Below, in pieces: positions 21,414 through 30,508 of a stretch of 64,000 nucleotides of DNA (within the stretch, counting starts at the first letter, position 1; each line of letters starts with the position of its first letter). The notes below the pieces were generated by a model. It did no database searches and was not told where the DNA came from. It saw only the letters and a list, made by a program, of their open reading frames with translations. Source of the stretch: Escherichia coli (lineage in GTDB: Bacteria > Pseudomonadota > Gammaproteobacteria > Enterobacterales > Enterobacteriaceae); the NCBI RefSeq assembly GCF_044324875.1, contig NZ_CP172185.1. One strand, given 5' to 3'. The translations under genes and the position numbers were made by a program.

Positions 21414-24400
21414 TTACGCTTTTTTAAAGCGGGCAAAGAGATGTTCCACTACAACGAAAAAGACCGGAACGAAGTAAATTGCCAGCACTGTTGCGGCAAA
21501 CATCCCGCCCATCACGCCGGTACCTACCGCGTTTTGCGCGCCAGAACCGGCACCATGACTGATAACCAGCGGCAGCACGCCGAGAATAAAGGCCAGAGAG
21601 GTCATCAGGATTGGGCGTAAACGCATTCGCGCCGCTTCGATGATCGCCTCTATCGGCGTTTTCCCTTCTTTCTGCATCATCTCAACGGCAAATTCGACAA
21701 TCAGGATGGCGTTTTTGGCGGAAAGCCCGATGGTGGTCAGCAAACCAACCTGGAAGTAGACGTCATTACTTAAGCCGCGTAGATCGGTGGCCAGTAATGC
21801 GCCAACGACGCCTAACGGTACAACCAACATCACCGAGAACGGAATTGACCAGCTCTCATAAAGTGCGGCGAGGGCGAGGAACACCACGACCAGTGAAATG
21901 GCATACAGCGCGGGAGCCTGGTTTGAGGATAACGCTTCCTGATACGACAGTCCGGTCCATGAGTAGCCGACGCCTGCCGGAAGTTTAGCGACCAGGTCTG
22001 CCATAAATTTCATGGCGTCACCGGTACTTTTCCCGGCCGCCGCTTCACCTAAAATCTCCATTGACGGGATGCCGTTGTAGCGTTCCAGTCGCGGTGAACC
22101 ATAGGTCCATTCGGTAGACGAATAGGCAGAAAGCGGTGCCATCGTGCCAGAGGCGTTGCGTACATACCACTGGTTGATGTTATCCGGCAACATACGGAAC
22201 GGCGTGCCTGCCTGGACATACACTTTTTTCACCCGCCCCTGGTTGAGGAAGTCGTTCACGTAGCTGCTGCCGAAGGCGGTGGAAATTGTCTGGTTGATAT
22301 CAGACAGCGCCACACCCATTGCCTCGGCTTTCGCGGCGTTGACGTTCACTTTGAACATCGGTGTATCTTCCAGGCCGTTCGGGCGTACCCCGGTGACTTG
22401 ATTCGGTGATTGCGCTGCCAGTGATAATAGCTCGTTTCGCGCCTGGGTCAGTTTTTCGTGTCCCAGGTTGCCGTTGTCCAGCAGTTCCATATCAAAACCT
22501 GACGCGGTACCCAGTTCAGCCACCGCGGGTAAGTTGAACGGGAAGACGACGGCTTTATTGATACTGCTTAACGCAATCATTGCCCGCTGAATGATCGCGG
22601 TAACCGAGTTTTCCTCACCGACACGTTCAGACCACGGTTTGAGGCTGATAAACGCCAGACCGTTGTTTTGCCCCTGGCCGCTGAAGCCAAAGCCGCCAAC
22701 GGTAAACACCGACTGAACATTATCTTTCTCTTTAGTCAGATAATAATCCGTCACCTGTTGCAGCACTTTCGTGGTGTTAACCATGGTGGCACCGGAAGGT
22801 AACTGCGCGGTGGTCATAAATACCCCCTGATCCTCTTCTGGTAAGAAAGAGGTCGGCGTGCGCAGGAACAGCACCGCCATCCCGGCGCAAATCAGCAGGT
22901 AGACCACCATGTAGCGACCGGTACAACGCAACAGCGAGCGGGTGCTGTCGGTATAGTGCTGAGTTGATTTTTCAAACAGTGTGTTGAAGCGTGCGAACAG
23001 GGCGTTAGGTTTGTGACCACCTTCCGGCGCGGCTTTCAGAATGGTGGCGCACAGGGCAGGGGTCAGGCTCATTGCCACAAATACTGAAAGCAGCATGGAG
23101 GAGATCAGCGTGATGGAGAACTGGCGGTAGATCTCCCCGGTTGCACCGCTCATAAAGGCCATCGGCATAAACACTGCGGAAAGAACAACGGCAATCCCGA
23201 CCAGCGCACGTTGGATCTGCCCCATCGATTTATGCGTCGCTTCCTTCGGCGGTAGCTTATCTTCTGCAATGACACGCTCGACGTTCTCCACCACCACGAT
23301 GGCGTCATCCACCAGTAACCCTATCGCCAGCACCATCCCGAACATAGTTAACGTGTTGATGGTGAAACCGACCGCCGACAAGATCGCAAACGTCCCGAGA
23401 ATAACCACCGGTACGGCAATCGTCGGGATGATTGTGGCACGGAAATTCTGCAAAAACAGATACATGACCAGGAAGACGAGGATGATAGCCTCAACCAGTG
23501 TTTTAAAAACTTCCTGAATAGAAATTTCGATAAACGGCGTGGTGTCGTAAGGATAAACCGTCTTCAGACTTGCGGGGAAATAGGCTGATAAGCGGTTCAG
23601 CTCCTCTTTGACTGCCCGTGAGGTATCCAGGGCGTTTGCTCCGGTAGCCAGTTTGATGGCGATCCCGGCAGCAGGTTTGCCGTTATAGCGCGCCACGGTG
23701 GAATAATCTTCCGCTCCAAGTTCGACGCGGGCGACATCACGCAGCAGCACTTGCGAACCATCTTGCTGAACTTTCAACAGGATTTTGCCAAATTCTTCCG
23801 GCGTTTGCAGACGCGTCTGCACAATGATCGAGGCGTTTAGTTGCTGGTCTGCCGCCTGTGGCATGCCACCCAGTTGACCACCGGAAATCTGGTTGTTTTG
23901 CACCTTAATCTGGGAAATAACATCGGAAGGTACCAGATTGTATTTATTGAGTTTTTGCGGGTCCAGCCAGATACGCATGGCGTACTCGGAACCAAAGAGC
24001 TGTACGCTACCAACGCCCGCGGTACGGCTTAGCGGGTCTTTGATATTAGACGCTACATAGTCCGCGATATCGTACTGGTTGAGGCTGCCGTTATCAGAAA
24101 TAAACGCCGCTACCATCAGGATATTACTGCTCGACTTATCGACGCTAATCCCCTGCTGCTGCACCGCTTCAGGTAATGAAGGCATAGCGAGTTGCAGTTT
24201 ATTTTGCACCTGAACCTGTGCGATATCAGGCGATGTCCCAGTCTCGAAGGTCAGAGTAATAGAGGCATTACCCGCCGCATCACTGGTTGAAGACATGTAC
24301 ATCAGGCCATCAAGCCCATTCATATTTTGCTCAATCACCTGAGTGACCGAGTCTTCTACCGTTTGCGCATCGGCACCTGGATAGGTAGCGCTGATGGTAA

Positions 24401-24527
24401 TGGTCGGTGGCGCAATCTGCGGATACTGCGCAACCGGTAAGTTCATGATTGCCAGACCGCCTGCAAGCATCATAATAATGGCAAGTACCCAGGCAAAAAC
24501 CGGGCGATCAATAAAATAGTTAGCCAT
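21414..24527 (-). CDS. mdtF: RND multidrug efflux pump inner-membrane subunit MdtF
   Basis: 1037-aa ORF, AcrB-like RND transporter; follows mdtE in the same orientation. Confidence 0.95.
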
Positions 24528-24551
24528 GAAAGTCCCCTTAAGCCTGCAACG

Positions 24552-25709
24552 TTATTGTTTCGATTCGGTGCTGGCGTTTTCCTGGCTGGAGGAAATTGCT
24601 CGTGCTTTGATACCCGGACGAATGCGTTGCAAACCGGAAACGATCACCCGATCGCCAGCCTGTAAGCCAGAGGTGACGACCCACTGGTCGCCGATGGCTT
24701 TGCTGGCTTCAATTTCACGTAGCTGCACGACATCGTCTTTATCCAGAATGAGCGCCGTTGCTTTACCCTGGGCGTTGTGGGTGACGCCTTCCTGCGGCAC
24801 CAGTAATACATTCTGGCGGCTACCTTCATCCACTAATGCCGTGACATACATGCCAGGCAGCAAGTCACCATTTGGGTTGGGGAAAATCGCCCGTAACGTC
24901 ACGGAGCCCGTGGTTTCATCCACCGTCGGGTCGGAGAATTTCAGCGTGCCGGTCTGGCTGTAACGTTTACCATTTTCCAGATTGAGCTGTACTGGCGTAC
25001 TGCCCTGAACCTGTTTGATTTGCCCACTGGCGACCTCTTCTTTCATACGCAAGAAATCCTGCACCGACTGCGTGAGATCGACATAAATCGGGTCCAGACG
25101 TTGTACGGTAACCAGCGAATCTGCCTGATTAGCGGTAACGAGTGCGCCGACGGTCACCGACGATTTCCCGCTGACGCCCGTAATCGGCGAGGTGACATTT
25201 GCGTATTGCAGGTTGATAGTCGCCTGTTCAACAGCCGCTTTGGCGACGGTGACATTGGCTTCTGCTTCATTCAACTGGGTGCGCGCGGTGTCGTAATCCT
25301 GACGGCTAACGTAGTTGGTCTTCAGCAACGATGCCTGGCGGTTAAAGGTGATGCGGGCATTGCTGGCGGTAGAGAGCGCTTTCGCCAGCGTGCCTTTGGC
25401 GGAGTTCAGCTCGGCCTGTAAAGGTGCAGGGTCAATCTGGTAAAGCGAATCGCCCTGGTTCACTTTATCGCCTTCGATAAAGTTGCGTTTAATGATAATA
25501 CCGCCCACCTGGGGACGTATCTCGGCAACTTCATAAGGAACGGTTCTACCGGGCAATTCGCTCAACACATTGACCGAACCGGGGGAGAGTGTGACGACAC
25601 CGACCTCAGGCGTCATGGCTGCGGCGTTTTCCGCCGATTTGTCATCGCAGGCGGTGAGCATCGCGCCGCAGAATAACAACGGTATTAACAGCTTTCTTCT
25701 TCTGTTCAT
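24552..25709 (-). CDS. mdtE: RND efflux membrane fusion (periplasmic adaptor) protein MdtE
   Basis: 385-aa ORF with lipoprotein signal (LLFCGAMLTAC); AcrA-like adaptor. Confidence 0.95.
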   Translation of the reverse strand: MNRRRKLLIPLLFCGAMLTACDDKSAENAAAMTPEVGVVTLSPGSVNVLSELPGRTVPYEVAEIRPQVGGIIIKRNFIEGDKVNQGDSLYQIDPAPLQAELNSAKGTLAKALSTASNARITFNRQASLLKTNYVSRQDYDTARTQLNEAEANVTVAKAAVEQATINLQYANVTSPITGVSGKSSVTVGALVTANQADSLVTVQRLDPIYVDLTQSVQDFLRMKEEVASGQIKQVQGSTPVQLNLENGKRYSQTGTLKFSDPTVDETTGSVTLRAIFPNPNGDLLPGMYVTALVDEGSRQNVLLVPQEGVTHNAQGKATALILDKDDVVQLREIEASKAIGDQWVVTSGLQAGDRVIVSGLQRIRPGIKARAISSSQENASTESKQ

Positions 25710-26047
25710 TTTAGTCCCTGAAAATTCTTGAGAAATAACGGTTCTTTAAATTGCGCGCGAGGAGAGATATGAGGGATTTACAGACCAGCGGCATAGTGGG
25801 GTTGTCAGCCAGTAAGGTGGGATACAGGCATAGTGATCGACATGGTGAGGTCAACGACAAAAAAAATGTTGCCGTTCTGCCAACAGTTCCTGCCAGCATT
25901 CGGGCAACGAAGGGTTCTACTGGTGGATACATATACCAGGGGAATAAAGTCGTTTTCGCCTCTCCTTTAGTAATCACCGGGGGTAATGAAATCAGCATCT
26001 GCATCCCTCGTCATGCCAGCCATCAATTTCAGTTGCTTATGTCCTGA

Positions 26048-26575
26048 CTAAAAATAAGATGTGATACCCAGGGTGACGATGTCGCTCATACGTCTTAGTT
26101 TCAGCTTGTACATAATGTTGAATTTCTGAATCTTTAATGTTTGTTGCGAAATATTGAGCGTCGACGTGATATTGCTTTCATTTTTATTTTTCAGAATCAG
26201 TTGCATAATTTTGAACTGATTATGTGAAAAACATAATTGTGAATTCTTATGGGGCAAGTGTTTACCATAAGTAATCTCAAGAAGATTTTTGATACTTTCT
26301 TTGCGGCTAACAAAATAAATAGGCGCTTTAGCTTTTAGTTTACTGATGTGATAAGGTGCCAAAACAATAATTCTCTCGGCATCTAATTTCTCCAGAAATT
26401 TAATCGCTTCTTCATCAAGGATATGATTGTGATAGGTATCAATGATAACCTTGAAGGGTTTATTGCCTACTTTTTTGATCTCTGACAGGGAATTGATTTT
26501 TATCATTTCGTGATTATCTTTCAACTGCCAAAAGCCCTGTAAAAGAAAAGAATCTTTCGTCATGAGAAAAATCAT
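26048..26575 (-). CDS. gadE: LuxR-family acid-resistance master regulator GadE
   Basis: ORF 26048..26653 trimmed to ATG 26575 (MIFLMTKDSFLLQGFWQLKD...), 175 aa. Confidence 0.93.
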   Translation of the reverse strand: MIFLMTKDSFLLQGFWQLKDNHEMIKINSLSEIKKVGNKPFKVIIDTYHNHILDEEAIKFLEKLDAERIIVLAPYHISKLKAKAPIYFVSRKESIKNLLEITYGKHLPHKNSQLCFSHNQFKIMQLILKNKNESNITSTLNISQQTLKIQKFNIMYKLKLRRMSDIVTLGITSYF

Positions 26576-26884
26576 AACTTGCTCCTTAGCCGTTATCGTT
26601 TCGAACATGTCATCCTTTTCATTATTTACATCCTTGTCCGAATCGTTGTTCAATATAGTAAACGCCTATAAGAACTTTGCCCTTCGTGAACTAATACGTC
26701 TATTAACACTAATCAATACTTCAGATTTATCCATCACGCACTCCATATATTGATCCTAAGTAAGATTCCTGGTTGTTATCAATTTGTAAATGGTAAACAA
26801 AAAGTTAACGTTTGCGGATTACTGCCCAAGAATAAGTTATCAATAACCAGTTTGTGATCTCTGAAGAATATTACTAAAGTTAAA

Positions 26885-26956
26885 ATGTAATCCGATTTAA
26901 ATATCGAGTCTCCTTGTTTCGACTTAAGCTGGCAATTGGATTGCCAGCTTTCTTTT
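26885..26956 (+). ncRNA. Candidate antisense sRNA in the gadE leader (ArrS/GadF-like); 5' end uncertain
   Basis: plus-strand hairpin agctggcaattggattgccagct followed by ttctttt at 26927..26956 would terminate a transcript antisense to the long gadE 5' UTR; ArrS is reported at such a position in K-12. Confidence 0.35.
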
Positions 26957-27373
26957 AACGCATTGAAATTACCTGAGTAAATAACGCATTCATGTCTTCA
27001 GGTTTTTATATAGCGTCTGGAGACACGGATATTTATGCAATGTAATCAACGCCTGTTGCAAAAAAATGAACCCGGATTACTTATTTAACCGCCCATAGCA
27101 TCAACGCTTACGGAACTCTTTGTTCACTTTCCCACAGCACTTTTAAAACATTAAACCTGACTACGGAAAATATCAGCCATGATAATGTTTGAAATGGCTA
27201 ATTTGCCATGGAATGAAAAAAATTAGATGAAATTCAGTAGGTTGAAATAATCATCAGCAGGTAATTATTTCAATGATAGTGCGCAATTGATCTACAACGC
27301 TGTGTAGCGGAGAGAGTATTAATCGGATCATAGTCACATCAAGTGACTATGATCCGGGTGACAACAGGAATAA

Positions 27374-27946
27374 TTATTGCTGCTTAACGAACAAACTGGC
27401 GAAGCTGAACAGGCTGGCGGCGCTAAATATCAGTTCAATACCCACCAGTGTGGAAACCAAAGTTACAGACACCATCGGCGTTGCACCAAGGAATATCCAT
27501 GCAATGACGATATCCAGCACACCAATAACGAGCTGTAGCCAGCTGCCTTTCATTGAACGCTGACGATACCAACTCATCAGGCGAATAACCCCTGCAACAC
27601 AGAACAAACCGGCAATAAATGCCGCAATGGCAAAAATGCCCAGCTCCGGTGCGCGGATGAAGAAATAGCCGATCAATAAATAGGCGACTGCGACGAGGAA
27701 ACCGGATAATACCGGCCAGAAATTATGACTGCGGTTGCTGAATAATCCAACAATAAGCGCAACGCCCGAGCAGATTAATAATGCACCCACTACCGTGCTT
27801 AAAATATCGCCAGAGACGAACGGGAAACTGATACACAGCAACCCGACGATAAACAGTAGCACGGCAATAAACTGGATTGCTCTGCGATGCTTTTTCAGCA
27901 TCTCCAGATCAAACTTCAAAATTGTTGCCTTATCTATATATAACAT
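27374..27946 (-). CDS. hdeD: Acid-resistance inner membrane protein HdeD
   Basis: 190-aa ORF, multi-TM protein; divergent from hdeA. Confidence 0.93.
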   Translation of the reverse strand: MLYIDKATILKFDLEMLKKHRRAIQFIAVLLFIVGLLCISFPFVSGDILSTVVGALLICSGVALIVGLFSNRSHNFWPVLSGFLVAVAYLLIGYFFIRAPELGIFAIAAFIAGLFCVAGVIRLMSWYRQRSMKGSWLQLVIGVLDIVIAWIFLGATPMVSVTLVSTLVGIELIFSAASLFSFASLFVKQQ

Positions 27947-28200
27947 AGAACCACCCTATAAAATTAAGAAGAAAATCCCCTGCTATCAATCTATGCCAAA
28001 AACGCGTCTAAGAATGCAGTCGATTTAATAAAAATTTCCTAATTACAGTATCTGATGCATCTGTAACTCATTGTATTGAAATAAAAATATCTGATTTTGA
28101 TATTTTCCATCAACATGACATATACAGAAAACCAGGTTATAACCTCAGTGTCGAAATTGATTCGTGACGGCTCTTTCACTTTATAGTTGAGGATATTACG

Positions 28201-28533
28201 ATGAAAAAAGTATTAGGCGTTATTCTTGGTGGTCTGCTTCTTCTGCCAGTTGTGAGCAATGCAGCGGATGCGCAAAAAGCAGCTGATAACAAAAAACCGG
28301 TCAACTCCTGGACCTGTGAAGATTTCCTGGCTGTGGACGAATCCTTCCAGCCAACTGCAGTTGGTTTTGCTGAAGCGCTGAACAACAAAGATAAACCAGA
28401 AGATGCGGTTTTAGATGTTCAGGGTATTGCAACCGTAACCCCAGCTATCGTTCAGGCTTGTACTCAGGATAAACAAGCCAACTTTAAAGATAAAGTTAAA
28501 GGCGAATGGGACAAAATTAAGAAAGATATGTAA
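28201..28533 (+). CDS. hdeA: Periplasmic acid-stress chaperone HdeA
   Basis: 110-aa ORF with signal peptide (MKKVLGVILGGLLLLPVVSNA); recognised as HdeA. Confidence 0.95.
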   Translation: MKKVLGVILGGLLLLPVVSNAADAQKAADNKKPVNSWTCEDFLAVDESFQPTAVGFAEALNNKDKPEDAVLDVQGIATVTPAIVQACTQDKQANFKDKVKGEWDKIKKDM

Positions 28534-28648
28534 TTCCGGGAATGCGTTACATCGTACTTCCTTGCATATTGAACAGGCCGGAATATCTTCTTTAAAAGCA
28601 GCTATTCCTCCTGTTTGTATATAATCTCTATATTGAATGGGTTACAAA

Positions 28649-28975
28649 ATGAACATTTCATCTCTCCGTAAAGCGTTTATTTTTATGGGCGCTGTAGCGG
28701 CTTTGTCACTGGTGAACGCACAATCTGCGCTGGCAGCCAATGAATCCGCTAAAGATATGACCTGCCAGGAATTTATTGATCTGAATCCAAAAGCAATGAC
28801 ACCGGTTGCATGGTGGATGCTGCATGAAGAGACAGTATATAAAGGTGGCGATACCGTTACTTTAAATGAAACCGATCTCACTCAAATTCCTAAAGTGATC
28901 GAATACTGCAAGAAAAACCCGCAGAAAAATTTGTATACCTTCAAAAATCAAGCATCTAATGACTTGCCGAATTAA
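28649..28975 (+). CDS. hdeB: Periplasmic acid-stress chaperone HdeB
   Basis: ORF 28637..28975 trimmed to ATG 28649 (MNISSLRKAFIFMGAVAALSL...), 108 aa. Confidence 0.93.
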   Translation: MNISSLRKAFIFMGAVAALSLVNAQSALAANESAKDMTCQEFIDLNPKAMTPVAWWMLHEETVYKGGDTVTLNETDLTQIPKVIEYCKKNPQKNLYTFKNQASNDLPN

Positions 28976-28991
28976 TGAGGTACAAGTAAAA

Positions 28992-29036
28992 AGGAGTAGC
29001 AAGTTGAGCCATCTTGCTGCTCCTTTTTGCTTTTTT
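28992..29036 (+). terminator. Intrinsic terminator/attenuator between hdeB and yhiD
   Basis: hairpin aggagtagcaag...cttgctgctcct followed by ttttgcttttttat, ending 3 bp before the yhiD start. Confidence 0.6.
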
Positions 29037-29038
29037 AT

Positions 29039-29686
29039 ATGACAGCAGAATTTATTATACGTCTTATACTCGCAGCAATTGCCTGTGGCGCTATTGGCAT
29101 GGAAAGGCAAATGCGCGGCAAAGGAGCAGGGTTACGCACACATGTATTAATTGGCATGGGAAGCGCCCTGTTTATGATTGTTTCGAAATATGGTTTTGCT
29201 GACGTGCTGTCTTTAAATCACGTCGGACTGGACCCCAGCCGTATTGCAGCTCAGGTGGTGACGGGCGTCGGGTTTATCGGCGCAGGTAACATTCTCGTTC
29301 GTAACCAAAATATTGTAGGTCTGACGACAGCAGCGGATATCTGGGTGACCGCCGCCATTGGTATGGTTATTGGTAGCGGTATGTACGAACTGGGCATTTA
29401 TGGTTCAGTGATGACCTTGCTGGTGCTGGAAGTCTTCCATCAATTAACCTTCCGCCTGATGAACAAAAATTACCATTTACAGCTGACATTAGTGAACGGT
29501 AATACGGTATCAATGCTCGACTGGTTTAAGCAGCAAAAAATAAAAACGGATTTAGTTTCGTTGCAGGAAAGTGAAGATCATGAAGTGGTCGCCATTGATA
29601 TCCAGCTTCATGCCACAACGTCGATAGAAGATCTGTTGCGATTATTAAAAGGTATGGCAGGGGTGAAAGGCGTTTCAATTAGCTAA
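29039..29686 (+). CDS. yhiD: MgtC-family inner membrane protein YhiD
   Basis: ORF 29027..29686 trimmed to ATG 29039 (MTAEFIIRLILAAIACGAIGMERQ...), 215 aa. Confidence 0.92.
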   Translation: MTAEFIIRLILAAIACGAIGMERQMRGKGAGLRTHVLIGMGSALFMIVSKYGFADVLSLNHVGLDPSRIAAQVVTGVGFIGAGNILVRNQNIVGLTTAADIWVTAAIGMVIGSGMYELGIYGSVMTLLVLEVFHQLTFRLMNKNYHLQLTLVNGNTVSMLDWFKQQKIKTDLVSLQESEDHEVVAIDIQLHATTSIEDLLRLLKGMAGVKGVSIS

Positions 29687-29737
29687 TCTTTATAGTTATT
29701 TATTCACAGGAGTACCAGAGCGGTACTCCTGTTGGTT

Positions 29738-30508
29738 TTAATGATCGAGGACGATCAGTGGTGAATGGTTGGCAGGATCTTTAAGTACGGTAATATCCGC
29801 GCCGTAGAGCATTGTCAGCGCCTGCTGTGTCAATACGTCCTGCGGTTTACCATTTGCGATAACCTTTCCTTTTTGCATTAATACAATACGGTCTGCATAA
29901 CGCGCGGCAAGATTTAGATCGTGCAATACGCAGCAAACATTGAACTGCCGTTCGTGAACTAACTGGCGTAATAAACGGAACAAGTGCTGCTGATGGTGAA
30001 TATCCAGCGCCGAAGTTGGTTCATCAAGAAATAACCATTTCGGTGAGGGAGTAGGTTCCCAGAGTTGCACCAGCAGGCGCGCTAATTGTACGCGCTGTTG
30101 TTCACCACCGGATAATTGCCGATAGTCGCGGTTTGCTAACGCCTGACAGTCACATAACGCCATTATTTGTGCTGTTTCATTATCCTGATTACCAGTACGA
30201 TGCGGATGCCGACCCATCTGGATAACTTCTTGTACGCTGAATGGAAACGCCATGTGGCTATTTTGACGCATCACGGCCCGGTGTTTCGCCAGTTCAGTAA
30301 TCGACCATTCATTTAATGGCTTATTAAACAACCGACATTCGCCGCTATCAGGTTGAAGATAGCCGGTTAACTGGCGAAGCAGCGTAGATTTTCCCGCACC
30401 ATTAGGGCCGAGAATGGCAACAATTTCCCCACCGGGAAAAGTCAGCGAGACATTGTCAGTCAGACGCCGCCCCTGAAGGCTATAAACCAGATTCTGGGCG
30501 CTGATCAT
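29738..30508 (-). CDS. chuV: Hemin ABC transporter ATP-binding protein ChuV (HmuV)
   Basis: ORF 29738..30661 trimmed to ATG 30508 ([16 protein letters not shown]...); Walker [13 protein letters not shown] signature LSGGEQQR; 4-bp overlap with chuU. Confidence 0.88.

Follow-up and report, generated by a model that had tools for sequence, protein, structure and literature searches.

Identification of the hairpin as the 3' end of arrS

The terminator-like hairpin upstream of gadE is almost certainly the 3' end of arrS, the known gene for the 70-nucleotide (nt) Escherichia coli small regulatory RNA (sRNA) ArrS. Within the 64,000-nt stretch of E. coli DNA that was analyzed here (referred to as the window), positions 26887 to 26956 on the plus strand are identical at 70 of 70 nucleotides to the noncoding RNA arrS of K-12 MG1655 (b4704, "small regulatory RNA ArrS"), and the sequence of this gene is GTAATCCGATTTAAATATCGAGTCTCCTTGTTTCGACTTAAGCTGGCAATTGGATTGCCAGCTTTCTTTT. 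In the curated RefSeq record, the K-12 gene occupies positions 3657985 to 3658054 of NC_000913.3 on the minus strand, opposite gadE. The original prediction, which had been made without database searches, proposed that an ArrS-like antisense sRNA ends at this hairpin and that an alignment with the ArrS sequence would be informative. The alignment to the K-12 record supported the proposal, with 70/70 matches over the gene and 115/115 when the flanks were included. Because of this identity, and because the hairpin lies in the same hdeD/gadE interval as in K-12, we conclude that it is the Rho-independent terminator of ArrS. The interval originally proposed, 26885 to 26956, was exact at its 3' end, while its 5' end lay 2 nt upstream of the annotated position 26887. 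An sRNA terminator was thus recoverable from raw sequence alone, with nearly exact boundaries.

The feature is already known, ArrS being a well-studied antisense sRNA encoded upstream of the acid-resistance regulator gene gadE. Its description dates to 2011 to 2014 and it is present in the K-12 reference annotation, so that it carries little weight as a discovery. It is very unlikely that the K-12 annotation lacks a real transcript, a reading which is disfavored by published northern, RIL-seq and RNase III data. Compared with K-12 ArrS, the RNA encoded in the window shows no difference whatsoever: it has the same sequence, strand, position between hdeD and gadE, terminator and seed residue C7, and it is the same gene. 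The host, by comparison, is a non-K-12 E. coli whose neighboring genes are 97.5 to 100% identical to those of K-12. A 774-bp intergenic query was 100% identical to strains such as WP8-S18-ESBL-07.

In PGAP-annotated E. coli genomes, the arrS locus carries no feature, and these genomes therefore omit the gene. Since PGAP leaves the locus blank, the annotation of arrS rests on the curated K-12 record. Similarly, an Rfam search of positions 24000 to 30000 (E ≤ 1) returned no family at the arrS locus.

Position of arrS within the gadE leader

The window includes the E. coli acid fitness island, and K-12 MG1655 features were mapped onto it. The gene order hdeD-arrS-gadE-gadF-mdtE is the same as in K-12. 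On the minus strand, we located mdtE (24552 to 25709, 98.5% identity to K-12), gadF (25859 to 25949, 98.9%, or 90/91), the coding sequence of the cis target gene gadE (26048 to 26575, 528/528 or 100%, also present in the open reading frame listing) and hdeD (27374 to 27946, 97.9%). The plus strand carries hdeA (28201 to 28533, 100%) and hdeB (28649 to 28975, 98.5%). The intergenic region between hdeD and gadE is 798 bp long, in agreement with the literature (PMC3708157).

The hairpin lies 351 to 375 nt upstream of the gadE ATG (position 26575) on the opposite strand, which bears out the initial estimate of about 350 bp. In PMC3708157, which cites Sayed and Foster 2009, gadE transcripts are described as starting at −21, −124 (T1), −324/−317 (T2) and −566 (T3) from the start codon; with the ATG at 26575, these starts correspond to window positions 26596, 26699, 26899/26892 and 27141. 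On the basis of that T3 start, the T3 5' untranslated region (UTR), the sense RNA complementary to ArrS, covers positions 26576 to 27141 on the minus strand. ArrS itself spans −312 to −381 relative to the gadE ATG and hence lies within the T3 leader, so that the predicted overlap with a long gadE 5' UTR was borne out. The 5' ends of T2 lie within the stretch that is complementary to ArrS. Full complementarity to ArrS is thus found in T3 only, since ArrS covers −312 to −381 and T3 starts at −566.

Structure of the ArrS terminator

Direct reading of the sequence showed agctggcaattggattgccagct at 26927 to 26949, followed by ttctttt at 26950 to 26956. The terminator scan reported a plus-strand hairpin, AAGCTGGCAATTGGATTGCCAGCTT, at 26926 to 26950; five of its 11 pairs are G-C, the loop has 3 nt, and the tail reads TCTTTTAACG. 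In the layout of the scan, AAGCTGGCAAT-TGG-ATTGCCAGCTT, the stem is one pair longer on each side than in agctggcaattggattgccagct; it is a perfect 11-bp stem, with UGG as the loop of the RNA. The U-rich tail TCTTTT occupies positions 26951 to 26956, and its last T is the annotated 3' end of arrS. The 3' end of the gene thus carries a Rho-independent terminator with an 11-bp stem, a 3-nt loop and TCTTTT, and the intrinsic terminator that had been proposed from the hairpin and ttctttt was confirmed by both scan and folding. When folded alone, the hairpin reached −15.0 kcal/mol, compared to −5.4 ± 2.1 kcal/mol for shuffled sequences (z = −4.5), and 0 of 200 shuffles were equally stable. For the entire 70-nt ArrS RNA, the folding energy was −20.2 kcal/mol (z = −3.84), and in the predicted fold two weak hairpins of 4 bp each precede the strong terminator hairpin and its U-tail.

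We considered whether the hairpin might have arisen by chance and have no function. A+T-rich intergenic DNA does give random terminator-like matches, with 2.5 expected per 3 kb, and between 25500 and 28500 we counted 7 terminator-like sites, compared to 2.5 ± 1.4 in shuffles. The stem at 26926 to 26950 was, however, the longest of these by far, its stability was not reached by any shuffle, the sequence is near-invariant in 5411 genomes and several species (see below), and it is the exact sequence of a curated gene that has been studied experimentally. A chance hairpin is thus effectively refuted by fold statistics, conservation and literature.

When read along the gadE strand, the palindrome runs into AAGUCGAAAC instead of a U-run, and termination is therefore expected on the plus strand only. 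Such a one-way terminator is in keeping with T3 transcription of gadE, which has to pass through the palindrome.

Putative promoter and regulation of arrS

Taking the sequence together with the annotated 5' end, we infer a putative arrS promoter at 26852 to 26880 on the plus strand. Read by eye, it would consist of TTGTGA (26852 to 26857), a 17-nt spacer and C-TAAAGT (26874 to 26880). The TAAAGT hexamer (26875 to 26880) is located at −12 to −7 from G26887, which places C26874 at −13; sigma-S promoters typically have a C there, and the putative promoter may therefore have a sigma-S-like feature. TTGTGA/TAAAGT matches the sigma-70 consensus at 8 of 12 positions, which is below the threshold of the promoter scan, and it is absent from the scan list. 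Divergent Escherichia species have kept both GTTTGTGAT and the CTA-A-T core.

Induction of ArrS by sigma-S and GadE is described in bioRxiv 10.1101/271551. RNA sequencing of a gadE mutant confirmed that GadE activates arrS, and OmpR was proposed as a further activator (PMC11230228). A search of the 798-bp intergenic region with the 20-bp GAD-box consensus (TTAGGATTTTGTTATTTAAA) gave a best match of 13/20, and shuffled sequences usually reached 13 as well. Since no GAD box stands out above chance, the GadE dependence of the arrS promoter is not visible in the sequence, and the scan carries no information on GadE binding.

The same search bears on the idea that a dimeric transcription factor uses the 11-bp inverted repeat as its DNA operator in this 798-bp gadE sensory integration region. 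The repeat is perfect, with a 3-bp spacer, and the region is bound by many regulators (PMC3708157; promoter occupancy peaks in PMC11230228). Nevertheless, we regard an operator as highly improbable: the literature examined names no regulator with such a half-site, the GAD-box matches do not exceed chance, and the G+C-rich stem with a T-run at the annotated 3' end of an sRNA is fully explained as a terminator.

Function of ArrS and proposed mechanism

The identity, position, strand, terminator structure and conservation of arrS were established in the present analysis; its expression, regulators, dependence on RNase III and Hfq, and targets are taken from the literature. For K-12, PMC5145812 and the work of Aiso et al. 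that it cites document an ArrS RNA of approximately 70 nt that binds Hfq and is induced in acidic stationary phase. According to PMC5145812, PMC6212723, 10.1101/271551 and PMC8708148, which summarize the primary work, the duplex of ArrS and T3 is cut by RNase III, and overproduced ArrS increases both gadE expression and acid resistance. In a transcriptome-wide map of RNase III sites, ArrS has a cleavage site, consistent with RNase III-dependent control of gadE mRNA (PMC6212723; also PMC8708148).

ArrS was also recovered by RIL-seq as an Hfq-bound sRNA whose trans targets are enriched in acid-response genes (PMC5145812). Pairing of the ArrS 5' end activates cfa; this activation was abolished by the C7G exchange and restored by the compensatory G101C exchange in cfa (bioRxiv 10.1101/271551). 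In the window, the 5' region of ArrS that includes this cfa 5' UTR pairing residue corresponds to approximately 26887 to 26900 on the plus strand. The seed residue C7 is present at 26893 by virtue of the K-12 sequence identity, and cfa itself lies outside the window. Mutation of the terminator loop strongly impaired the repression of fepA without lowering ArrS levels (PMC11979758), and the terminator hairpin has thus already been studied experimentally. Deletion of arrS caused no phenotype in acid-shock and cfa assays (10.1101/271551).

In the mechanism that we propose, plus-strand transcription would start at G26887 and proceed away from gadE towards hdeD, and it would stop at the 11-bp stem-loop at 26926 to 26950 and the U-tail ending at 26956. 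Since its gene faces −312 to −381 of the gadE leader, the resulting ArrS would pair perfectly with T3, and RNase III would cut the duplex. In trans, ArrS would bind Hfq, activate cfa through its 5' end (C7) and repress fepA through its terminator loop.

Conservation of arrS

Of 5426 complete E. coli genomes, 5411 contain the 70 nt of arrS, and the match was chromosomal in every case. Identity was at least 99% in 4095 genomes and between 95 and 99% in the other 1316. In all three E. coli genomes sampled from the 95 to 99% band, we observed the exchange A26927G, a common E. coli variant, which changes the second pair of the stem, near its base, from A-U to G-U and so keeps the pair.

When one genome of each species was scanned for exact matches to the 25-nt hairpin, hits came from E. 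coli, Escherichia sp. E1V33, Escherichia sp. MOD1-EC7003, E. whittamii and a contig assigned to "Flavobacterium paronense". Since such a scan finds unchanged hairpins only, the fact that E. fergusonii, E. albertii and others were not returned is uninformative about variant arrS in these species. In Escherichia sp. E1V33 and E. whittamii, arrS is identical at 69 of 70 positions. Identity amounts to 29 to 31 of 40 in the 40 nt upstream of arrS and to 117/146 in the gadE leader segment from −126 to −271, and no alignment is possible for the 70 nt beyond the T-tract. In these species, different DNA has taken the place of the adjacent leader, and the long T3 leader may perhaps be absent there in the same form.

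The conserved block ends at the 3' end of ArrS, which provides independent support for a constrained plus-strand transcript. This island of conservation hints, as modest independent support, that the whole ArrS sequence is under selection beyond its complementarity to gadE. It is conceivable, if somewhat doubtful, that selection on ArrS is mainly for its trans action as an Hfq sRNA and less for a cis-antisense role. The argument for this is that antisense complementarity survives any mutation at the locus, and yet 69 of 70 positions, including the terminator loop, are conserved. If ArrS indeed had a mainly trans-acting role, its cis effect on gadE would be secondary.

These comparisons also bear on the possibility that the palindrome is chiefly a structure of the sense gadE T3 leader RNA, for example a stability or processing element, and that the plus-strand terminator is incidental. 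The RNA of the gadE strand does fold just as readily into a mirror-image hairpin (−22.5 kcal/mol over 89 nt, z = −3.5), and PMC3708157 places the T2 5' ends (−324/−317) nearby. In contrast, conservation in divergent Escherichia stops exactly at the ArrS T-tract, a boundary that is meaningful only for the plus strand. Moreover, Hfq-bound ArrS has been observed as an RNA in its own right (PMC5145812), and mutations in the terminator loop have effects (PMC11979758). We therefore consider it improbable that the palindrome serves primarily as a T3 leader element. A structural role in the leader could coexist with arrS, but it could not replace it, and the identification of the hairpin as the ArrS terminator is retained.

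Two of the genomes showed peculiarities at this locus. On the "Flavobacterium paronense" CECT 8460 contig (NZ_JAUFQN010000010.1, 8635 bp), the arrS region is identical to that of E. coli over the 130 nt compared, most likely due to E. coli contamination of the assembly. In E. coli AH21H052 (NZ_CP196264.1, ∼4762521 to 4763123), an IS200C element with an annotated tnpA is located at the U-tail of the arrS terminator, where it replaces the last 2 nt. The insertion thereby cuts arrS and gadE off from P3 and the rest of the upstream part of the gadE regulatory region.

GadF, GadY and other elements in the vicinity

The original prediction had described the antisense RNA as ArrS/GadF-type, and the second part of this label was incorrect. 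The sRNA GadF belongs to the sense strand and comes from the gadE 3' UTR; it is located at 25859 to 25949 on the minus strand, and published work describes it as processed from that UTR on the gadE strand, and not as an antisense RNA (PMC5145812). We thus rejected GadF as an identity for the hairpin, which lies upstream of gadE on the opposite strand. The only genuine match of the Rfam search was the family ES205 (RF02754), at 25859 to 25930 with 105 bits, compared to a gathering score of 86, and the GadF gene carries a terminator hairpin of its own, with an 8-U tail. GadF (b4718; ES205, RF02754) resembles ArrS in its location at the acid-resistance locus, Hfq binding, cfa as a target and an intrinsic terminator. 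It differs in that it derives from the gadE 3' UTR, ∼940 nt away, and is antisense to nothing in the leader.

GadY, encoded in the gadX-gadW region, differs from ArrS in both locus and sequence, and it overlaps the 3' UTR of gadX rather than a 5' leader. Like ArrS, it is a cis-antisense RNA of the acid fitness island with Hfq-dependent trans interactions (PMC5145812).

In strain AH21H052, PGAP annotates a "hypothetical protein" (WP_001205317.1; L010 837 to 1166, plus strand) opposite the 3' end of gadE and GadF. This protein probably corresponds to the 98-amino-acid open reading frame at window positions 25751 to 26047 on the plus strand, and it looks like an over-call across the known sRNA GadF.

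Two additional inverted repeats were observed on the hdeD side of arrS. At 27324 to 27356, 18 nt downstream of the hdeD stop codon, a perfect 14-bp inverted repeat present on both strands (cggatcatagtcac / gtgactatgatccg, 5-nt loop) folds with −25 kcal/mol (z = −6.4) and lacks an obvious U-run on the hdeD strand; either the hdeD terminator or a protein-binding palindrome would be a possible reading. Between hdeB and yhiD, a hairpin of ∼22 bp (28984 to 29032, plus strand; −30.1 kcal/mol, z = −6.8) is followed by TTTTTT and is probably the hdeAB terminator. Sub-threshold Rfam matches to mir-5928 and mir-761 fell on this latter hairpin and were dismissed as spurious.
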